DNA of 64,000 nucleotides from Anaerolineae bacterium (lineage in GTDB: Bacteria > Chloroflexota > Anaerolineae > Anaerolineales > UBA4823): assembly GCA_003327455.1 (NCBI GenBank), contig QOQU01000004.1, positions 390,042-454,041 of the forward strand, in the 5' to 3' direction. The notes under the pieces are model-generated. The model saw only the letters and a list, made by a program, of their open reading frames with translations, was not told the DNA's origin and ran no database searches. The position numbers were made by a program, and so were the translations under genes. Positions 4,089-63,920 of the stretch are shown piece after piece. Position 1 is the first letter of the stretch. Every line of letters starts with the position of its first letter.

Positions 4089-7016
4089 TTACCCGCAGAC
4101 AATGCGGCGCAGGAACTGACCGGTGAAGGATTGGGGGTTGGCACAAATCTCCTCCGGTGTGCCTACGGCGACCACCTCGCCGCCTCGATCGCCTCCCTCC
4201 GGACCCAGGTCGATGATATAGTCGGCAACCTTTATAATGTCCAGGTTGTGTTCGATAATCAAAACCGTGTTGCCTCCTTCCACCAGGCGTTGCAAGACCT
4301 CGATGAGTTTATGCACATCGGCGGCATGTAAGCCCACCGAGGGTTCATCCAGAACATACAGGGTGCGCCCGGTCGAGCGGCGGGAGAGTTCTTTCGCCAG
4401 TTTCACCCGTTGGGCTTCGCCGCCCGATAACGTGGGCGCCGGCTGACCGATGCGGATGTAGCCCAGCCCGACATCCTGCAGGGTCTTCAGCCGATTGATC
4501 ATGTTCGGAAAGGCAGCAAAGACTTCCATCGCCTTATCCACGGTCAGGTCCAGGACATCGGCAATGTTGTATTCCTTGAAGCGCACCTGCAGGGTTTCGC
4601 GATTGAAGCGCGCCCCATGACAGACATCACACGGCACGTAAACATCGGGCAGGAACTGCATTTCGATTCGCAGTTGCCCCTGTCCCTGACAGGCTTCACA
4701 GCGACCACCATGTACATTGAAAGAAAAGCGTCCCGGTTTATAGCCGCGCATTTTGCTCTCCGGCAGTTCGGCGAAAAGGGCGCGAATCAGGTCGAACAGG
4801 CCGGTATAGGTGCCGGGGTTGGAGCGCGGCGTACGCCCGATGGGCGACTGATCGATATTAATCACCTTATCGATATGTTCCAGCCCTTCGATGCGATCGT
4901 GCGCGCCGGGCTGGGTATGCGTGTGATAAAGATGCTGCGCCAGGGCTTTGTAGAGGATTTCCACCATCAGGGTAGATTTCCCCGAGCCCGAAACGCCGGT
5001 GATGCACACCAGGCGCCCGAGTGGAATCTCGACATTGATGTTCTTCAAGTTGTTTTCGCGCGCTCCAATAATGCGCAAGACTTTACCGTTGCCGTTGCGC
5101 CGCACGCCTGGGATGGGCACCTGCAAACGGCGCGAGAGATAGGCGCCGGTCAGGGAGCGCGGATTGCTCAAAATGTCTTCCAGTCTGCCCTGGGCGACAA
5201 TTTCCCCGCCGTTTTCGCCTGCCCCGGGACCCAAATCCACAATCCAGTCGGCGGCGCGGATGGTCTCTTCATCGTGTTCCACCACCAGGACGGTGTTGCC
5301 CAGATCGCGCAAACCTTCCAGGGTGCGCAACAGGCGGGCATTGTCGCGAGGATGCAAACCAATCGAAGGCTCATCCAGGACATACAGCACCCCCATCAGG
5401 CGCGAGCCGATCTGGGTTGCCAGGCGGATGCGCTGTGCTTCTCCGCCGGAGAGCGAAGCCGCCGTGCGTTTGAGAGTCAGGTAATCCAGCCCCACATCCA
5501 CCAGAAAGCCCAGGCGCGCCTTGATTTCCTTCAGGATGCGCTCGGCAATCATCTTTTGGCGGACGGTCAGAGGTGAATTTTCGCCGCTCAGGTGTTCCAC
5601 CCACTGCAAGGTGCGCAGGACGGGCCATTCGGTGACCTGGATGATGTTATAGCCATCCACGGTCACCGCCAGGGCTTCCTCGCGCAGGCGTTGCCCGTGG
5701 CAGCGCGGGCAAACCACCTCGCTCATCACTTCGGCGATCTTCTCGCGAATATATTCCGAGTTGGTTTCCTGATAACGGCGGTGCAGGTTATTGATCACCC
5801 CTTCAAAGGGGGCGCGAAAGGTTGCCTCGCGCCCTTCGCGGTTATAGCGAACGGTGACCTCGCGCCCGCCGGTTCCATATAAAATGATGTCCAATTTTTC
5901 CGGCGGCAGGCTGCTGACCGGGGCGTTCAGGTCGATCTGATATTCACGGGCAACCGCCTGCAGGGCTTGCCAGTAATAGCCGCCTTCTTCGCGCGGCCCG
6001 TGCCATTCCGAGACGATGATTGCCCCTTCGTTGAGGGATAATTCCTTGTTGGGGATGAGCAGATCGGGATCGATGACCAGTTTTCCTCCCAACCCCTGAC
6101 ATTCCGGGCAGGCGCCGTGCGGCGTATTGAACGAAAAGGTGCGCGGCTCGATCTCGGGCAGGCTAACGCCATGCTCCGGGCAAGCCAGATGTTCCGAAAA
6201 GTGCCAGTCGTACGGCTCTGGCTGCCCCTCTAAAGCTGCGGAGGCGTCAGGCGAATGCAGTGCGACAGCAGAGGGCAGCACCTGCACAGTGAGATAGCCC
6301 TCGCCAAATTTCAAAGCCGTCTCGACCGAATCGGTCAGGCGGCTGCGGAAGGTCTCCCGCTCTTCAGCCTCCTCTTCCCGCGGGATGATCAGCCGATCCA
6401 CCACGGCCTCGATGGTGTGCAGTTTATAGCGGTCTAAAGGAATCTCTTCCACGAGAGGATAGACCGTCCCATCCACGCGGGCGCGGGTGAAACCGGCTTT
6501 GCGGATCTCCTCGAAGACTGCCTGATGGGTGCCCTTGCGCCCACGGATGAGCGGCGCCAGAATCAGGAAGCGCGTGCCCGGCGGCAGGGTTTCGATGGCA
6601 TCCACAATCTCCTGCGCCGATTGTTTGCTCACCTCACGCCCACAGACCGGGCAGTGGGGGATGCCGATGCGGGCATAGAGCAGGCGCAGATAGTCGTAAA
6701 TTTCCGTCACCGTCCCTACCGTCGAGCGCGGATTGTGCGAAACGCCTTTCTGGTCAATCGAAACGGCTGGCGAAAGCCCTTCGATATAATCAACATCCGG
6801 CTTTTCCATCTGCCCCAAAAACTGCCGCGCATAGGCAGAAAGCGATTCGACATAGCGGCGTTGCCCTTCGGCGAAGATGGTATCGAAGGCTAAAGAGGAT
6901 TTTCCCGAACCGGAAAGCCCGGTGATGACCACCAGCTTATCGCGCGGGATATCAACACTGATATTTTTCAGGTTATGGACGCGCGCACCAACCACACGCA
7001 GGACATTTTGCGACAT
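4089..7016 (-). CDS. uvrA: Excinuclease ABC subunit A
   Basis: 975-aa ORF with two ABC ATPase modules ([18 protein letters not shown]), LSGGEAQR signatures and zinc-finger Cys clusters ([19 protein letters not shown]). Length is canonical for UvrA. Confidence 0.97.
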
Positions 7017-55057: not shown

Positions 55058-55369
55058 TTATTGTTGGACTAAGGTACACATCCAGGGGAACCAATTGAGG
55101 GAGGACTCGCCGAGAGCCGGCAGGGCTTTGATCAACTCGTCCATGTTGGTGATGTTGTTCTCAAGGAGGAACTGACGGGTGATCAACTCCGGGCGGACGA
55201 GCAGGTATTTATCCACTTTTTCGCCCGCAACAAGGGCAGCCGCGGTGCGAACAGCCAGACGACCAACGCTATAGGAGTCGGTCGCAACAGTAGCTTCCCA
55301 AGGACTGTCAGGCTGAATCATCAACTGGATATCTTCATTGGTAATGTCAACAGAATAAACCTTCAGTAT
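55058..55369 (-). pseudogene. C-terminal about 100-codon remnant of a CUT2 periplasmic sugar-binding protein (5' end missing)
   Basis: The open frame reads ILKVYSVDITNEDIQLMIQPDSPWEATVATDSYSVGRLAVRTAAALVAGEKV..., an RbsB-like C-terminal lobe. An in-frame TAA at 55370-55372 bounds it upstream. No signal peptide or N-lobe exists upstream, and the sequence changes to AT-rich island DNA. Confidence 0.7.
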
Positions 55370-55436
55370 TTAGGAATCGCTTAAATTTAGATTCGCTACC
55401 GTTCATTCTAATTATTATAATCAAATGAATGCTCGT

Positions 55437-55475
55437 GTAAAAATTAACACTGGGAATTTATAACATCCCAGTGTT
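55437..55475 (-). terminator. Rho-independent terminator ending the island operon
   Basis: Minus strand: AACACTGGGA-10 nt loop (contains the TAA stop)-TCCCAGTGTT (55446-55475), followed by AATTTTTTA. Confidence 0.8.
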
Positions 55476-56357
55476 TTTAAGCTCATCTTCAGACAGTTCC
55501 AGTTTACACACAAAACACCTGCCTACAGTTAAAAATTGCCCGCTCAGGTCGTCTTCCGATTCTGTATAAAGCTTAAGAACGCAAAAAGAAGCATTACCAC
55601 AGGCAGGACATTCCATACTGTCACGTACAATCTCCCTTTCATCATAGGAAGAACGGATGTTTATTTTTTTTCTTTCCTCAATTAATTCAGGATTTAGTTC
55701 GCTATATTCTTCCTTCTTTTCCCTTATTTTTTGGCTTAGGGTATCAGATTGCTGTCTTGTGAGTTCTTCTTCCTTTGCCTTAAGTTTCTCAAAAACAGTC
55801 TCATTAAAAATGTCTTCATATTTGTACGCATCAGATACTTCCTGAATCATTTCCCGAATAAAGGGTAATATTTCATTAAGAATAAACAAACCCTCATCTA
55901 CAGGGTTAAAATAATACTCGAAATAGTGGACAATATTGTTACGCATGTTGCCTAATCGAACTAGGGCCGCTTTTCTTCTGTCCCGCTCTTCGCGAATTCT
56001 TTTCAATTCGTGCTTATCCGTAACAGCCTCGTCCTCTTCAATGTTTAGATTAAACATCGCTTCGTATCGTGAAATAACTTCATTGTACGGAATGGTAAGA
56101 AAGGTCTCGCGCCTTTCTTTACGGGTCATAAGGTTTTGTCTCGACTGGATATTTTTAACTTTATCCTGAAGCTTCTTAAACCTGACCAGATGTTCTACAC
56201 TGTTATTTTTATCCAGCACCAGCACATCGTCAAGCTCACATAAACGCTGTTTCATAAGCCGCTCAACGGCCACAGCAAATAGTACAACCGACAGCTCAAA
56301 ATGCTCGCTGTCAATAAAATATCTCAGCGCTTCGGACAGGATAACCGAGGTGTGCAT
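55458..56357 (-). CDS. HEPN-like (Rx4H) protein with a coiled-coil and a C-terminal zinc ribbon
   Basis: 299 aa. R139-N-N-I-V-H144 (nt 55926-55943, CGTAACAATATTGTCCAC) sits in the context LVRLGNMRNNIVHYFEY. A K/E-rich helix spans residues 190-235. CPACG...CFVC lies at residues 250-284. Its ATG shares one nt with the hsdMS stop (TAATG at 56355-56359). Confidence 0.6.
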   Translation of the reverse strand: MHTSVILSEALRYFIDSEHFELSVVLFAVAVERLMKQRLCELDDVLVLDKNNSVEHLVRFKKLQDKVKNIQSRQNLMTRKERRETFLTIPYNEVISRYEAMFNLNIEEDEAVTDKHELKRIREERDRRKAALVRLGNMRNNIVHYFEYYFNPVDEGLFILNEILPFIREMIQEVSDAYKYEDIFNETVFEKLKAKEEELTRQQSDTLSQKIREKKEEYSELNPELIEERKKINIRSSYDEREIVRDSMECPACGNASFCVLKLYTESEDDLSGQFLTVGRCFVCKLELSEDELKNTGML

Positions 56358-59095
56358 TACTCTCCAAACACCTCCCTGTCCAGAATCATTTTTATGGTCT
56401 GTTTTGCGTTTTCCTTTAGCCTTCTGATATTGGTCAGCGTTTCAAACTGAACGTTAAGGAAATCCACTATTTTCTGCTGTTTTTCAATTGGAGGAAGCGG
56501 AACTTTAATATAACTTAAATCGGTTTGAGTTATTGATGGATATTGAGATTTTTCCATCAACTTAGTTAACTCAGATACGAATATATCAGATAGAACATAG
56601 AAGAATAAAAATCTAGGCAGTATTACTTCATTTTTGCTCCTTAATACAGCAAAACCTGTAGAACATATTTGGTTATTAAATCTCTCGTCATCAATTATAC
56701 AAAAACTCTTTAAGTTAGGCCGAACAGTAGAAATTAAAACATCGCCAATTTTTACAACTCGTCTTGCTCTACTTGGTGCATTCTTGCCACTAATAAACTT
56801 ATAATCAGTTATCGTGAAGGTTTTATTATCAACAGAAGAAATATCTATGTAGATAAACTCTTTTTCAGGCTCATTTTCGGGATTCATGCTTTCGGGATTA
56901 ATCTCTACGACATCTGGCAACTCCACCCATTCCCAATCTCCTTCAAAAATACTGTCGTCGATTCCAGCTTCAAGAATGGTCTTTTCCATAGCATTGCACT
57001 GCTCAATAATAGCCTGCTGCTTGTCCAAGCGGGCAACCAGTTCCTGTTGAACGGGAAGAGGTGGGAGAGGGATTTGAATATTGGCTAAATCATCAAATTT
57101 CAAAGTATCCCTAATACTTCCAGAAACTGCTTCATTGATTTTGTTCATCATCCAATCTGTTTTCAATAAATAATACAGAAATCTTGAATCTGTAGTTTTA
57201 CTATCTTTTACTTTAAATACTACATAAGCAGGGCTTACAAGACCTTTAACCACGTTATCAGCAAATCCTATAGAACCTATATTAATTCTGTAAGGATTAT
57301 AAACAAAGTAATCTTTATATATTATCTTATAGCTATTAAGGTTTTTAGCATATACTTCTTCGTTATTTCCATATACGTTTTCTTTAAAATAATCTTCTGC
57401 AGGAATTATCCCGAACTCTTTACTAACACTATAAACTGGCAATTCTTCGGAAAGCACATTTCTATCCGTAATTTGTTCAATGATTTCTCCCAGTCTAACA
57501 ATGTTATGTTTCCTACTTTGGCAGATCAAATTTTTATACAGCCCCGGGTTAAGGTTATAATTTTTTGCTTTGATTTCCTCAATCGTCGCCGCCCAGCAGA
57601 AATCATTATCTATAAAATCAGGCGGTTCCTTTGTTGGGTTATCAATCCAATCTATCCATCTTCTAAACACTTCCACCGCTTTAGGCAGGTTCCCACAAGG
57701 CGGTTCGTAAATGTTCGGGTCATCACCCTGGAAAGCTCCGTTAATTGGCCTTCTCTGGGTTGTTAAGGTAAATCCGTCATCTTTCACATCAACAAACAGC
57801 ACCTGCTTTGTGGTGTAAGCATTTTGTTTCTTTGTCTCGTTCCATTCTTCTTTTGTGGGTTTTTCAAAATACAGCACTGTCGTTTTGACACCGGAATACG
57901 GCTGAAAAATGCCTGCCGGCATGGAAAAGACAGCTTTCAAATCAAATTCGCGCAGGAGCTTCATGCGTATATTCTTGAATACAGAGGAATTGTCAAACAG
58001 AATCTTGTCCAAGATTATAACTACTGCCCTGGAACGTTTTTTACCTGGTTCAGAAGGTCTTAATGCCGCCATAATATGCTGGATGAACAATGCTTCGTAG
58101 CGTTTGGCATGGAACTCAAAAGTACCAACCCGCGACTGAGCAAGTGGACCATACGGTGGGTTAGTTAACACTACATCATACTTTTCTTTATGTTCTAACT
58201 GTGCTCGATTGTCTAAGCTGTCAGCCTCAAAGAGGTTGGATTTGCCGTCATTGTGCAATATCATATTCATGAGGGCAAGCTTGTAAACGTCTGGAGCCTT
58301 CTCCACAGCATAAAGAGACTCTTCCTTCAGTTTTCGGTAAAGCATTTCAGCTTCATCAAATTGAACCCCATTATATGCGGCAGTAGACTCGTTAACTCTC
58401 ATCCCCGCTTTTACAAGATTATCAATTTTACTCTTTACTACTTCGAAGGCACGCAGAATAAAGCCTCCCGTACCAGCCGCAGGGTCATATATTTTTTCCC
58501 CAATTTCCGGGTCAGCAAGTTCCACCATGAAATGAATGATGTGGCGAGGAGTAAAATACTGACCGTACTGTTTTTGTTCGCCAAGCTTTTGAACAACAAA
58601 TTCGTATGCTCTGCCCATAACGTCAAAATTTTGTTCAAGCTCAAGGTCTTTCAGCCGTTTTATCAATTCTTTAATGGTCGGGCTGTACCTTATACGCCAT
58701 ATATGATTTTTAAATAGCCGTCTGAAAAGGCTTAAATCCCTGCCATCGTGGTCCTTAACTTCGGCCAGTTCGGAAAATATGTTTCTAACATAATCGACTA
58801 TAGTAAACTCTCCATCGTCAGTCTTTACGGTTTTTCCGTCACTTGCCAAAATCTTTTCTGCCCATGTGGAAAACCTCAGGTGATTTGGTAAATCAGGCAC
58901 AAATTTAGTTCCATCCAAACGGGCGAGTTCTTCTCTTTGTTTTTCTCTCTCGTCAAAGAGCTTTAGAAACAAAAAATAGCTAAATTCTTCCAGATACTCG
59001 GTGGTTTTGAGAGTATCGTCTCGAAAAATATTGGCAATATCCCAAAGCTCAGAACCAAGCCTGTGAAAATCTACTTTGTTATTGTTTTGCGCCAT
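56357..59095 (-). CDS. Type I-like R-M methyltransferase fused to a two-TRD specificity subunit (HsdM-HsdS fusion)
   Basis: 912 aa. HsdM_N-like N-terminus, SAM motif I DPAAGTGGF and motif IV LTNPPYG. These are followed by two target-recognition domains, each ending in an HsdS conserved helix (IQIPLPPLPVQQELVARLD and IKVPLPPIEKQQKIVDFLN). Confidence 0.85.
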   Translation of the reverse strand: MAQNNNKVDFHRLGSELWDIANIFRDDTLKTTEYLEEFSYFLFLKLFDEREKQREELARLDGTKFVPDLPNHLRFSTWAEKILASDGKTVKTDDGEFTIVDYVRNIFSELAEVKDHDGRDLSLFRRLFKNHIWRIRYSPTIKELIKRLKDLELEQNFDVMGRAYEFVVQKLGEQKQYGQYFTPRHIIHFMVELADPEIGEKIYDPAAGTGGFILRAFEVVKSKIDNLVKAGMRVNESTAAYNGVQFDEAEMLYRKLKEESLYAVEKAPDVYKLALMNMILHNDGKSNLFEADSLDNRAQLEHKEKYDVVLTNPPYGPLAQSRVGTFEFHAKRYEALFIQHIMAALRPSEPGKKRSRAVVIILDKILFDNSSVFKNIRMKLLREFDLKAVFSMPAGIFQPYSGVKTTVLYFEKPTKEEWNETKKQNAYTTKQVLFVDVKDDGFTLTTQRRPINGAFQGDDPNIYEPPCGNLPKAVEVFRRWIDWIDNPTKEPPDFIDNDFCWAATIEEIKAKNYNLNPGLYKNLICQSRKHNIVRLGEIIEQITDRNVLSEELPVYSVSKEFGIIPAEDYFKENVYGNNEEVYAKNLNSYKIIYKDYFVYNPYRINIGSIGFADNVVKGLVSPAYVVFKVKDSKTTDSRFLYYLLKTDWMMNKINEAVSGSIRDTLKFDDLANIQIPLPPLPVQQELVARLDKQQAIIEQCNAMEKTILEAGIDDSIFEGDWEWVELPDVVEINPESMNPENEPEKEFIYIDISSVDNKTFTITDYKFISGKNAPSRARRVVKIGDVLISTVRPNLKSFCIIDDERFNNQICSTGFAVLRSKNEVILPRFLFFYVLSDIFVSELTKLMEKSQYPSITQTDLSYIKVPLPPIEKQQKIVDFLNVQFETLTNIRRLKENAKQTIKMILDREVFGE

Positions 59096-61356: not shown

Positions 61357-61896
61357 TTAGCGGTAATCCAACCCCAAAAATTGCTGGATGTCCTTCATCT
61401 CCATCAGTTCTTCAACTGTCCAGTAGCGGTGGAACCGGTCTTTGTAGCGAAGTTCCCACCACCTGCGGAAAAGCGGCTCAAGTTCATCGAACATCGGCCA
61501 GCGGCTCCACTTCATTTTCTCCCTCAGTTCTTCCAGCGTCCAGACACTGCCGTCTTCTTTTTTGGGTATGTTAATGCGCCCGTCAGGTTGGATAACCACC
61601 TGCGGCTGGGCAATCTCTTTTTGGAGAACAGTCACTTCGCCAACCTCCTTTAGATATTTATCGGAAAGAGTTATCAAACAATCAAGCTCAAAGTTTGGTA
61701 ATAATTCTTGTTTTGGGCTTACTGCCTCAAACCGCCGGGTAAGATTTGCTGAAGCCCTGCCGAGCGTGGAACCGTCGTCTACAACGCGGTCCCGCTTCAG
61801 CGGCTTCAGACGAACCCGTCTTTGACCAAGGTCAAAGCTCAAAAATATATATAGCGGTTTTGACATTTTGACCTTCCGTGCGCGGTAAGTGTTCAT
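61357..61896 (-). CDS. Hypothetical Trp/Arg-rich protein (169-179 aa)
   Basis: The ORF overlaps the upstream primase-helicase stop by 4 nt (ATGA). An alternative ATG at 61866 follows GGAAGG. The C-terminus reads WSRWPMFDELEPLFRRWWELRYKDRFHRYW. I recognise no family. Confidence 0.5.
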   Translation of the reverse strand: MNTYRARKVKMSKPLYIFLSFDLGQRRVRLKPLKRDRVVDDGSTLGRASANLTRRFEAVSPKQELLPNFELDCLITLSDKYLKEVGEVTVLQKEIAQPQVVIQPDGRINIPKKEDGSVWTLEELREKMKWSRWPMFDELEPLFRRWWELRYKDRFHRYWTVEELMEMKDIQQFLGLDYR

Positions 61897-63920
61897 TCAC
61901 CGCTGTCTTCATCGTCCGCTTTCCACCCATCGGGCGTCTTTGTAAGAGTGTAAGTTTTTGGAGACCCTTGATGTCCCCCTTCTTCCTCAATGGTGAAGCC
62001 GCCTGCCCGCAGTTTACTGATGTCGTTTCTCACAGTCTGGTCGCTGACCTTCAGTAAGTCGGTTAGCTCTTTCTGCGTGTAGCTCCGCTGTGTCAACAGC
62101 TTCGCCAGCTTCTGCAGGCGCACTTCGCTGTCTTTCAGCTTTATGTTGATGCGGAAACCATCATCGTAAACCAGATTCCCGTCCTCGAATTTTAAGCTCA
62201 AATTCTCTACAGTCTCAGCGTCGCGGAACTCTCCGGTAACAACTACGCCTACATCTTCGTCTTTCTGGAACTTGCGGATGTCTATCACGCCGTCCATTTC
62301 CGCCCCTTTGACAGAAGACCCCCTGCTGGCATACACAAGAACGTCCGACGGCTTTTTTGCGGTGTGGTCAACGACGACGACCGCCATATGGGGGTACTTG
62401 CGGAGGAGCATATTTAGTGGCGCGAATACCTGCTGCATGACGGAAGAGTCGTTTTCGTCTCCATCGAAGAAGCTCCTCAGTGGGTCAAGTACGAGCAGGT
62501 CAGGCCGGAACTCGTCAATAAATTTGAGCAGGTCTTCAAATTCCGGGTTTTTCGGTAGCAGTTTCACGCCTGTCCTGTGCGGAATGACGATGTTGCTTGT
62601 ACCGGCAAGGCTCTGCTGTACTCTCTGGATTAAAGCGTTGGTCGAGTGTTCTTCCTCCACCATAACGGCTTTGATTCCAGAGACGGTAGTTTTCCAAAAC
62701 GGTACCCCGCAGACGTTTTCTCCGCGGCTGAGCGCTTTTAATAAGCTTAGGACAAACCACGTCTTCATCTGCTTCGGCGGCCCTTGGACAAGAATTTTTT
62801 GCCCTCTCGCTATCATCCCTCTTACCAGCCAGTCAGGTTCCGCAGGCTCTCTCTTCAGCAGTTCTTCCACCCTGTAGTAGCGGGAAAACCGGTCTTGGTG
62901 TTCTTCAAGCGGGATTAGCTCTACCAGTTCCTGGTCGGTATGGTTGTTGCGGGTCAACCACTCACAGATGTCTTTCCCGACATCGCCCCGCTTCCACGGC
63001 AGTTCAACCACTTTACACCGTTCTTCTCCCAGCACCGCTAGGGCAGACCTGACAAAGTTCGCGCTGGCGTCGTCGTCCTGCGGGATGAGGTAGATGGTGC
63101 GTATGCCTTCAAATTCCCGTTTCCACTCCTTGCGGAAATTGTTGCCCGGCACGCTAACTACAGGGATGTCTACACCGCAGGCTTCAAGCGCTTGGATAGT
63201 CCTTAGAGCATCGCTTTCTCCCTCTACTATAACTGCTTGGCTCTTCCCCTCAAGACTGTCGAGATTCCACAATGAAAAACGGGAGTTTTTAACCGCTCCT
63301 TTCCTGCCGTCGTAAGCCCTCCCTCTGATAGCCCTGATTTTGCCCCTCACGCGAAAAGGGACTACCAAGCATTCAACCTGTCCTGCATCTTCGTCATGGG
63401 GGACATAACCCCATTCGAAACGCTCCAGCATTTCATACTTGATTCCTCTGGCGGTAATGTACTCTTGGACAATCGGCAGTTCCGGGCGCAGGCGCGCTTT
63501 TGCTTCTTTGATAAACTCTTCAAATTCCTCTTCCTGTCCGGGTGTGGGGATATAGGTGTGGCTGGGGTCGTAGTGGGGGAACGCTCGGAGGTAGCTTCCT
63601 GTCCGTTCGTCTTTTACGTAAAGCTCGCGGAGGTAGTCGTTTATGAAATAGCTCGCGTCTTCCGGCGCAATGCCTGCAATTTCAACTAAAAAGCGGTACG
63701 GCGAAAAGCTCCCGCATACATGGCAGACGTAAAAGCCCGACTTGACGTTGACCGTCGCGGAAGGCTTCCGGTCGCTGTGGTATAAGCACTTTAAAGATTG
63801 GACGGTAAAGCCGTCTTCCTTTATGTCCATCCTGTCCAGTTCAGGAAAATAGCGGGCGTAAAAATCCCGCCAAGGTTCGGGATGAAGAGACTCGTTAAAA
63901 TCAACCCTCCACTTCTTCAT
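61893..63920 (-). CDS. DnaG-type primase (CHC2 zinc finger plus Toprim) fused to a RecA-like/RepA-type ATPase and a C-terminal HTH
   Basis: 675 aa. zf-CHC2 is CLYHSDRKPSATVNVKSGFYVCHVCG. Toprim is AVIVEGESDALR...IPQDDDAS. The P-loop-like segment is VQGPPKQMKTWF and Walker B is DLLVLDPL. The HTH is YTQKELTDLLKVSDQTVRNDISKL. Confidence 0.8.
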   Translation of the reverse strand: MKKWRVDFNESLHPEPWRDFYARYFPELDRMDIKEDGFTVQSLKCLYHSDRKPSATVNVKSGFYVCHVCGSFSPYRFLVEIAGIAPEDASYFINDYLRELYVKDERTGSYLRAFPHYDPSHTYIPTPGQEEEFEEFIKEAKARLRPELPIVQEYITARGIKYEMLERFEWGYVPHDEDAGQVECLVVPFRVRGKIRAIRGRAYDGRKGAVKNSRFSLWNLDSLEGKSQAVIVEGESDALRTIQALEACGVDIPVVSVPGNNFRKEWKREFEGIRTIYLIPQDDDASANFVRSALAVLGEERCKVVELPWKRGDVGKDICEWLTRNNHTDQELVELIPLEEHQDRFSRYYRVEELLKREPAEPDWLVRGMIARGQKILVQGPPKQMKTWFVLSLLKALSRGENVCGVPFWKTTVSGIKAVMVEEEHSTNALIQRVQQSLAGTSNIVIPHRTGVKLLPKNPEFEDLLKFIDEFRPDLLVLDPLRSFFDGDENDSSVMQQVFAPLNMLLRKYPHMAVVVVDHTAKKPSDVLVYASRGSSVKGAEMDGVIDIRKFQKDEDVGVVVTGEFRDAETVENLSLKFEDGNLVYDDGFRINIKLKDSEVRLQKLAKLLTQRSYTQKELTDLLKVSDQTVRNDISKLRAGGFTIEEEGGHQGSPKTYTLTKTPDGWKADDEDSGE

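Follow-up and report, generated by a model that had tools for sequence, protein, structure and literature searches.

The window analyzed in this study is a 64,000-nucleotide stretch of an Anaerolineae bacterium (contig QOQU01000004.1, positions 390,042 to 454,041 of the forward strand). The last gene of a type I restriction-modification (R-M) operon in this window encodes a protein of 299 residues, consisting of a helical N-terminal domain, a charged helical linker, and a C-terminal zinc ribbon. The membership of the N-terminal domain in the HEPN superfamily is well supported by residue conservation and structural modelling, and the gene is hereafter called the HEPN gene. We favor, with moderate confidence, the view that the product is a self-regulated, infection-triggered HEPN RNase that moves together with the R-M system and adds a second layer to it.

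The gene, its conservation and the predicted HEPN domain

An earlier interpretation of the window, made from the letters alone (the sequence-only reading), had placed an open reading frame (ORF) at 55458-56357 with its start inside the hsdMS stop codon (TAATG). Both points were confirmed on the minus strand. The strand reads GGAGAG-TAATG at this site, where the ATG of the HEPN gene takes its A from the TAA of hsdMS. The gene order is hsdR, hsdMS, and the HEPN gene, which is thus the terminal gene of the operon, as had been noted. The hairpin across its stop codon (Table 1) had a folding energy of -16.3 kcal/mol (z = -3.9), none of 200 shuffled sequences was equally stable, and a U-run follows the stem. 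The parts of a type I R-M system were all found: HsdR with nuclease and superfamily 2 (SF2) helicase, HsdM with N6-methyltransferase, and HsdS with two target recognition domains (TRDs). HsdM and HsdS form a single polypeptide of 912 residues, in which Pfam identified HsdM_N, N6_Mtase, and two Methylase_S domains (the TRDs).

A word-indexed search detected 144 homologues of the protein, of which approximately 100 were 90-100% identical to it, and a second group was approximately 50% identical. The near-identical homologues came from an Anaerolineae metagenome-assembled genome (MAG), Fervidobacterium gondwanense (97%), Caldalkalibacillus thermarum (96%), and a Bathyarchaeota MAG (90%). When the family profile was run exhaustively with HMMER against 1.84 billion cluster representatives, it matched 73 clusters at 50% identity (E up to 1e-3), and approximately 40 of these were full-length, at about 300 residues. 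No homologue was found in plasmid or phage collections with tblastn. The named members that were examined were all labelled "hypothetical protein" or carried a generic zinc-ribbon COG name.

Alignment of 35 relatives, which had 16-25% identity to the window protein except for one of 55%, showed that M1, E32, R139, H144, C250, P251, C253, C281, and C284 were invariant. K36, L39, and R97 were at least 90% conserved in this alignment, and N140 reached at least 90% conservation in a family alignment of 45 sequences. There was no conserved run of 7-10 columns in the 35-sequence alignment. Since the motif residues are invariant among relatives of only about 20% identity, the architecture of helical domain, charged helix, and four-cysteine ribbon is ancient and under selection.

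The string LGNMR139NNIVH144YFEY was present with the numbering given earlier, and R139-H144 is encoded by CGT AAC AAT ATT GTC CAC on the minus strand. An Rx4-6H string arose in 71% of composition-preserving shuffles and is uninformative by itself; the weight of the evidence therefore falls on conservation. The narrower RNxxxH form arose in 2.5% of the shuffles, and a CxxC-x15-40-CxxC pair in 0.02%.

Profile searches gave weak matches of one kind. The window protein matched no Pfam, NCBIfam, or PHROGs model, and the PADLOC scan returned only DUF3644, over 31 residues (E 6e-4). PF18735 (HEPN_RiboL-PSP) was matched by 7 of 12 close relatives at 16-23 bits, the best being 23.3 bits (P0112) against a gathering score of 28.4. 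These alignments ran from profile positions of about 60-75 through 158-191 of 191 and included the RNxxxH helix. The other recurring weak Pfam matches were DUF3644, DUF4145, HEPN_MAE_28990, and HEPN_Cthe2314, all of them HEPN families. The best score for DUF3644 (PF12358) was 18.8 bits against a gathering score of 27.6, and the protein has no winged helix-turn-helix (wHTH) or restriction endonuclease (REase) domain. Because no Pfam, NCBIfam, PADLOC, or PHROGs model reached its threshold, the protein could be placed in no named HEPN family, and its sequence points to an uncharacterized family without a name, as had been proposed.

The first AlphaFold2 model, of the full-length protein, had a predicted local distance difference test (pLDDT) score of 75 and gave no usable Foldseek match. 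The second model, of residues 1-180 and built on the 45-sequence alignment, reached a pLDDT of 89 and a predicted template modelling (pTM) score of 0.82. It contains helices at residues 3-14, 17-42, 115-144, and 152-173, with an insert at 43-114. E32 and K36 lie inside the helix 17-42, and RNxxxH lies at the C-terminal end of helix 3, before the loop to helix 4. The HEPN domain has been defined by four core helices, Ex3[KR] in helix 2, an insert between helices 2 and 3, and Rx4-6H closing helix 3 (PMC3710099). The modelled topology and motif placement agree with this definition point by point, and the residue that follows R139, N140, is polar, as expected for the superfamily motif.

The 14 top Foldseek matches of this model in the PDB were all HEPN structures, namely Csm6 from three species, SO_3166 and HepT-type toxins, and AF_0298, with E of 0.1-1.7 and probabilities up to 0.96. 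Since no single match was significant, the structural support lies in the uniform HEPN ranking together with the motif placement. A Foldseek search against viral structures was uninformative, and PDB sequence searches with two family profiles yielded nothing beyond chance TPR matches and generic zinc-ribbon matches. In an hhalign comparison with one Swt1-HEPN sequence, the RN...H motifs were aligned without significance. The sequence-only reading had named the domain HEPN from the RNxxxH string, and the conserved Ex3K and RNxxxH motifs, the sub-threshold HEPN matches, and the residue 1-180 model all bear this out. It might be argued that the protein is no nuclease at all but a structural or DNA-binding accessory whose helical bundle happens to contain an Rx4H string, given how often the string occurs by chance and that every database match is individually non-significant. 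We give this hardly any credence, as R139, H144, and E32 have stayed invariant in relatives of about 20% identity despite drift elsewhere in the domain, the motif sites fit the HEPN definition, and the weak sequence and fold matches are all HEPN.

The charged helix that had been noted after the HEPN half was found as segment 177-240, in which 30 of the 64 residues are charged (13 K/R and 17 D/E). The full-length model shows a long helix at 186-219 (pLDDT about 90) plus shorter helices, and the linker is kept in all full-length relatives. The zinc ribbon, with its four invariant cysteines, also stood, and only its spacing needed a trivial correction, from CPACG-x27-CFVC to CPACG-x26-CFVC (27 residues separate C253 and C281). 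The modelled strands are at 243-248, 258-265, and 274-281. The best matches of the ribbon were Rpb9/RPC10, TFIIE, and the MqsA N-terminal domain; all were marginal, with E no better than about 0.05. Four of the 35 members gave a weak Lar_restr_allev signal (best E 0.012, not significant). The Lar-like and MqsA-like readings of the ribbon were rejected, since neither match was significant.

Synteny, modular variation and the mobile element

The order hsdR-hsdMS-HEPN was conserved in all eight informative loci, at 46-81% identity and in several phyla. A locus was informative if the relative was at least 46% identical and had sufficient upstream sequence; hsdR was seen wherever the sequence reached it. 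Members of this clade came from Tepidanaerobacter, a Syntrophobacterales MAG, a Desulfohalobiaceae MAG, a Cloacimonadota MAG, and unclassified metagenomic contigs. The HsdM-HsdS fusion was conserved in all related loci. HsdR (64-72%), HsdMS (52-59%), and the HEPN protein (48-54%) diverge in parallel, which argues for a module whose three genes have long been inherited together. The R-M coupling noted earlier therefore extends to every relative of at least 46% identity with enough upstream sequence.

Translational coupling to hsdMS and the same operon position throughout this clade would suit the PrrC-style backup mechanism put forward in the sequence-only reading. In its strict form, the HsdR/HsdMS complex would hold the RNase inactive, and an Ocr- or Stp-like anti-restriction factor would free it. 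The pairing of PrrC with EcoprrI is a precedent, and a mechanism of this type has been proposed in general for R-M-linked HEPN genes (PMC3710099). The window protein, however, lacks an ABC-ATPase domain and has no homology to PrrC or RloC beyond the HEPN core, and the loci described below also speak against this form.

Seven further loci carried an identical HEPN protein. Six of them were intact operons, and the gene start coincided with the hsdMS stop in 6/6. The identical 299-residue protein followed HsdMS of 886, 891, 910, and 912 residues. The TRD blocks at approximately 57083-57533 and 56510-56918 were replaced in element copies otherwise 99% identical, which is classic TRD shuffling, here within a fused M-S polypeptide. 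One HEPN protein thus occurs with four TRD combinations, and any contact would therefore have to use conserved HsdM/HsdR surfaces. In one locus (L020:8922-10900), an intact, identical HEPN protein followed a 359-residue S-only remnant, with a transposase and a Big_2 protein adjoining and neither hsdM nor hsdR near the HEPN gene. This is either a decaying element or a HEPN gene tolerated without the R-M complex.

In relatives of about 50% identity, the distance between hsdMS and the HEPN gene varied, and 1-3 kb of foreign genes can lie between them, which breaks the coupling. The gap held a 793-residue AAA_13/PDC-S06 protein (L015, 3251-5632), a 431-residue AbiH-like protein (L016, about 680-1980), or a 398-residue protein of unknown function together with KwaA and KwaB of Kiwa (L018, 6909-9834). 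In four loci (L002 at 4339-4620, L003, L013, and L014) it held a conserved 93-residue, weakly Mrr_cat-like ORF. Because the contents of the gap differ among these relatives, the HEPN gene is a retained "bookend" of a slot for defence cargo.

The 93-residue ORF, which is not present in the window, is weakly similar to the C-terminal half of Mrr_cat (E 0.015) and also resembles a 270-residue Mrr_cat protein (L008:8130-8942; pairwise E 1e-4), whose gene lies directly upstream of a distant HEPN-zinc-ribbon relative. A recurrent Mrr-like partner of HEPN-zinc-ribbon genes is possible on this basis.

The neighborhoods of distant relatives (about 20-25% identity) were diverse. One stands at the head of a cluster that comprises another type I R-M system and GmrSD, in an element with integrase and primase (L028). 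Another is the last gene of a DUF1156 methylase/DUF499-HEPN_Swt1 system and overlaps its stop (L010). One is flanked by Mrr_cat and Abi_C genes (L008) and one adjoins a Schlafen/AlbA_2 protein (L009). Others lie near an integrase (L006) and at a prophage edge (L030), and two have no recognizable neighbor (L007 and L029). A divergent 261-residue ORF of no assigned function was seen directly upstream of P0206 (L005 and L006:8154-8939) and P0207 (L029:5027-5812), and an unannotated 260-residue ORF begins 4 nt past the stop codon of P0206. These ORFs may be partner genes.

The variant HsdMS partners, the S-only remnant, the intervening foreign genes, and the solitary distant relatives (L007, L029, and L030) cast doubt on a strict need for the R-M complex. 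Taken with the missing ABC-ATPase, they leave the PrrC-style mechanism as first proposed weakened and unsupported, and we regard its strict form as possible but rather unlikely.

The variation between close variants is modular, with cassette-like replacement of the insert. In the Tepidanaerobacter variant (L012:8997-9905), the identity fell to that listed in Table 1 over the cassette region. The divergent part of the Caldalkalibacillus variant is the zinc ribbon (81%), and that of one further variant is the coiled coil (83%). A 24-residue stretch of the helix 2-3 insert is missing in the relatives of about 50% identity.

The operon belongs to a mobile element extending from approximately 55362 to at least 64000, which contains a primase-helicase gene, orf179, hsdR, hsdMS, and the HEPN gene. 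The upstream element genes are co-conserved with the R-M module in other genomes at 99-100%. The element DNA was 97-100% identical to contigs of other samples and taxa, the HsdS TRDs excepted. BLAST similarity to four independent contigs ended at 55361-55362, identity with the Tepidanaerobacter contig L012 extended by eye to about 55367, and the shared similarity always ended 91-96 nt after the HEPN stop codon. The element proteins were 96-97% identical in isolates of F. gondwanense (Thermotogota) and C. thermarum (Bacillota), 81% in Tepidanaerobacter, and 90% in the Bathyarchaeota MAG. Near-identity of the copies across phyla implies that the element has passed between phyla of thermophiles very recently, although the archaeal copy could result from misbinning.

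Past this end of the element, a binding-protein-like ORF is left with its C-terminal part only, approximately 95 codons at 55058-55340 (minus strand) with upstream stops and no start codon, which suggests that the element was inserted into the substrate-binding-protein gene of a downstream ABC transporter operon. A near-consensus sigma-70-like promoter (TTTACA-16-TATAAT, 11/12; 55414-55441, minus strand) lies within the last 90 nt or so of the element and is directed out of the element, at the truncated gene of the binding protein and at the genes of the ABC transporter. At the other side of the operon, the 179-residue ORF between the primase-helicase and hsdR genes (61357-61896, minus strand) was 100% conserved in some copies and 78-88% in others, and matched nothing in Pfam, NCBIfam, PADLOC, or PHROGs.

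A terminal gene of a mobile element that is near-identical across several phyla could be an addiction or stabilization module, in which the toxin would kill segregants that have lost the element or the R-M operon and there would be no phage defence. Many HEPN proteins are toxins of toxin-antitoxin systems (PMC3710099), and 5yep and 7ae6 were among the fold matches. But no antitoxin gene adjoins the HEPN gene in the window, and no tandem-repeat RNA or Rfam match was found around it that could be an RNA antitoxin. The neighbors of the relatives are defence genes, not antitoxins, and solitary chromosomal copies exist (L007). Such a module seems quite improbable to us.

Comparison with known systems and proposed function

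At least 16 clades of R-M-linked HEPN genes were catalogued in 2013, and fusions of HEPN with zinc ribbons were among the proteins described (PMC3710099). The sequence-only reading had recognized no known family in the architecture. The lack of a family name stands, and the novelty is smaller than was implied. PrrC and RloC share with the window protein a predicted HEPN RNase inside a type I R-M operon and a plausible role as a second defence line (PMC3710099). In both, a large N-terminal ABC-ATPase (AAA_13) precedes a HEPN domain at the C-terminus, whereas the window protein has an N-terminal HEPN domain, no ATPase match, and a coiled coil plus ribbon. The relative in L015 encodes a separate AAA_13/PDC-S06 protein beside its HEPN gene, and the ATPase and the HEPN protein are therefore distinct components there.

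PF18735, of the Abi2/AbiD/AbiF-related clade, was the best and most consistent sequence match, always below the gathering score. Its proteins are fused to endoribonuclease L-PSP and occur in operons with ParB (PMC3710099), and neither was seen here. Npun_R5629 of the Abi2/Swt1 assemblage combines HEPN and a zinc ribbon as the window protein does, and EC042_2821 (DUF3644) combines HEPN, a zinc ribbon, and an R-M operon but also has wHTH and REase domains (PMC3710099); both were compared by description only.

Two abortive-infection systems that consist of a single HEPN protein are relevant. DARNA (PD-T7-3), described recently, has an N-terminal HEPN domain of about 160 residues whose closest structures are Csm6 HEPN domains such as 6TUG; its active site is occluded by an insert between core helices, which also bears residues that bind RNA, and the C-terminal domain senses single-stranded DNA (ssDNA) (bioRxiv 10.64898/2026.02.22.705581). 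ApeA responds to deoxydinucleotides that arise when DNA is broken down, and these activate it (bioRxiv 10.64898/2026.01.26.701840). Both are ligand-activated and cut tRNA anticodon loops (bioRxiv 10.64898/2026.02.22.705581; bioRxiv 10.64898/2026.01.26.701840). DARNA and the window protein share a plan of N-terminal HEPN domain, inter-helix insert, and C-terminal module, and Csm6, including 6tug, heads both lists of fold matches. DARNA ends in a helical repeat of 300 residues, and ApeA forms a large oligomer containing a ligand pocket, whereas the window protein has a coiled coil and a 45-residue ribbon. Apart from the weak DUF3644 match, the PADLOC scan gave no match to DARNA, ApeA, or other HEPN defence models. 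Pfam HEPN_Apea was not matched, and an ApeA PDB chain appeared only at E of about 1. Since the protein is not PrrC/RloC, a RiboL-PSP HEPN by the Pfam score, DARNA, or ApeA, its sequence indicates a new family within the known R-M-linked HEPN theme, which may nevertheless coincide with the group of Npun_R5629 or of EC042_2821.

The analysis shows the structure of the gene, the conserved motifs, a fold compatible with HEPN, the synteny, and the mobility of the locus; RNase activity, dimerization, a trigger, a target, and a defence phenotype are inferred, as follows. The protein would be a metal-independent HEPN endoribonuclease with R139 and H144 as the catalytic pair, helped by E32/K36 and N140, and the dimer would probably be the active form, as in other HEPN RNases. 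The coiled coil would join the catalytic domain to the zinc ribbon, and the two together may read the infection signal; the ribbon is most likely a sensing or regulatory module. The gene is co-transcribed and translationally coupled with hsdR and the fused hsdMS and is transferred as the terminal gene of an integrative element. When a phage evades or disables restriction, the RNase would be switched on and cut RNA of the host or the phage, as an effector of the abortive-infection type; the most plausible targets are the anticodon loops of tRNA or mRNA. Its control is most likely intrinsic, through a helix 2-helix 3 insert that gates HEPN dimers together with the coiled coil and ribbon, with no obligatory masking by the R-M complex. 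We propose this autonomous sensor-effector model by analogy with DARNA and ApeA as precedents.

A self-regulated RNase is favored because of the missing ATPase domain, the four HsdMS partners of the identical protein, the S-only remnant, and the solitary members of the family. A defence role is consistent with the Kiwa, AAA_13/PDC-S06, and AbiH-like inserts and with the defence neighbors of distant relatives. Several points weigh against this view. No Pfam HEPN model reached its gathering score, and the best Foldseek E was 0.097. The role given to the ribbon is a guess, as what it matched in the databases was generic and not significant. The S-only remnant may be too recent a decay to inform on dependence on the R-M complex. 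No antitoxin gene, RNA antitoxin, or inhibitor was identified that could prevent self-toxicity.

The co-transcription with hsdR and hsdMS could also fit a regulatory RNase or RNA-binding factor of the R-M operon itself, for example one that tunes hsd mRNA in a new, unmethylated host. The element often moves between very different hosts, and the ribbon signal was weakly Lar-like. However, the Lar and MqsA similarities are not significant, and distant members occur without any R-M system. To our knowledge, there is no precedent for a HEPN protein that controls a type I R-M system. We consider this role very improbable.

We also speculate on a more specific route from the R-M system to the RNase, distinct from PrrC-type masking. 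The protein might be a new type of infection sensor-effector whose ribbon senses a nucleic-acid signal made by the neighboring restriction enzyme, for example DNA ends, ssDNA, or small degradation products formed as HsdR translocates and cuts; restriction itself would then directly license a burst of RNase activity, and the swappable helix 2-3 cassette might set RNA specificity or allow escape from phage inhibitors. We think this combination improbable as a whole.

Feature positions and meaning of the finding

The positions of the features discussed above are collected in Table 1.

Table 1. Positions in the window of the HEPN gene, its parts, and the surrounding element.
Feature	Positions	Strand	Basis
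Gene of the HEPN, coiled-coil and zinc-ribbon protein, 299 aa	55458-56357	minus	ORF list and translation
TAATG stop/start overlap with hsdMS, GGAGAG in front	56355-56359	minus	sequence reading; start equals upstream-gene end in 6 further intact operons
HEPN domain (predicted), residues 1-175	55833-56357	minus	AlphaFold2 model, Foldseek ranking, sub-threshold Pfam matches
E32-x3-K36 (VERLMKQ), acidic/basic pair of helix 2	56250-56264	minus	E32 invariant, K36 at least 90%
R139-N-N-I-V-H144, predicted catalytic Rx4H motif, end of helix 3	55926-55943	minus	invariance and model
Variable insert between HEPN helices 2 and 3, residues 43-114	56016-56231	minus	low pLDDT in first model; close-variant substitutions cluster there
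Cassette varying between elements, residues 67-135, helix 2-helix 3 insert region	55953-56159	minus	32% identity vs 92-98% in flanks
Charged helical linker, probably coiled coil, residues 177-240	55638-55829	minus	long helix and charge content
C-terminal zinc ribbon, residues 246-290, C250-P-A-C253 and C281-F-V-C284, three-stranded sheet	55488-55622	minus	Cys invariance and model
Terminator-like hairpin, 10-bp stem, 10-nt loop, across HEPN stop codon, then UUAAUUUUU	55437-55475	minus	RNA fold
hsdMS, fused type I methyltransferase and specificity subunit, 912 aa	56357-59095	minus	Pfam, PADLOC, NCBIfam matches
hsdR, EcoAI-like type I restriction subunit, 741 aa	59110-61335	minus	HSDR_N, ResIII, Helicase_C, EcoEI_R_C; NF046051, 278 bits
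Upstream element genes: 179-aa unknown and 675-aa primase/AAA_25 helicase/HTH protein	61357-63920	minus	Pfam
Right-hand end of shared element	55362-55367		BLAST and by-eye comparison

The concept of an RNase tied to an R-M system will not surprise specialists. The family described here is uncharacterized, compact, and modular, and it travels on a widely transferred element of thermophiles. It would add a compact HEPN architecture of about 300 residues to the RNase effectors attached to R-M systems. The predicted R139/H144 catalytic pair, the candidate ribbon sensor, and the natural cassette variants offer clear handles. Because the operon moves nearly unchanged between distantly related thermophiles, the HEPN protein is likely to be thermostable and host-independent, and it may be a convenient model for studying what triggers the RNases of R-M loci. 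The slot between hsdMS and the HEPN gene, which collects defence systems, may also be a useful anchor for discovering new ones.

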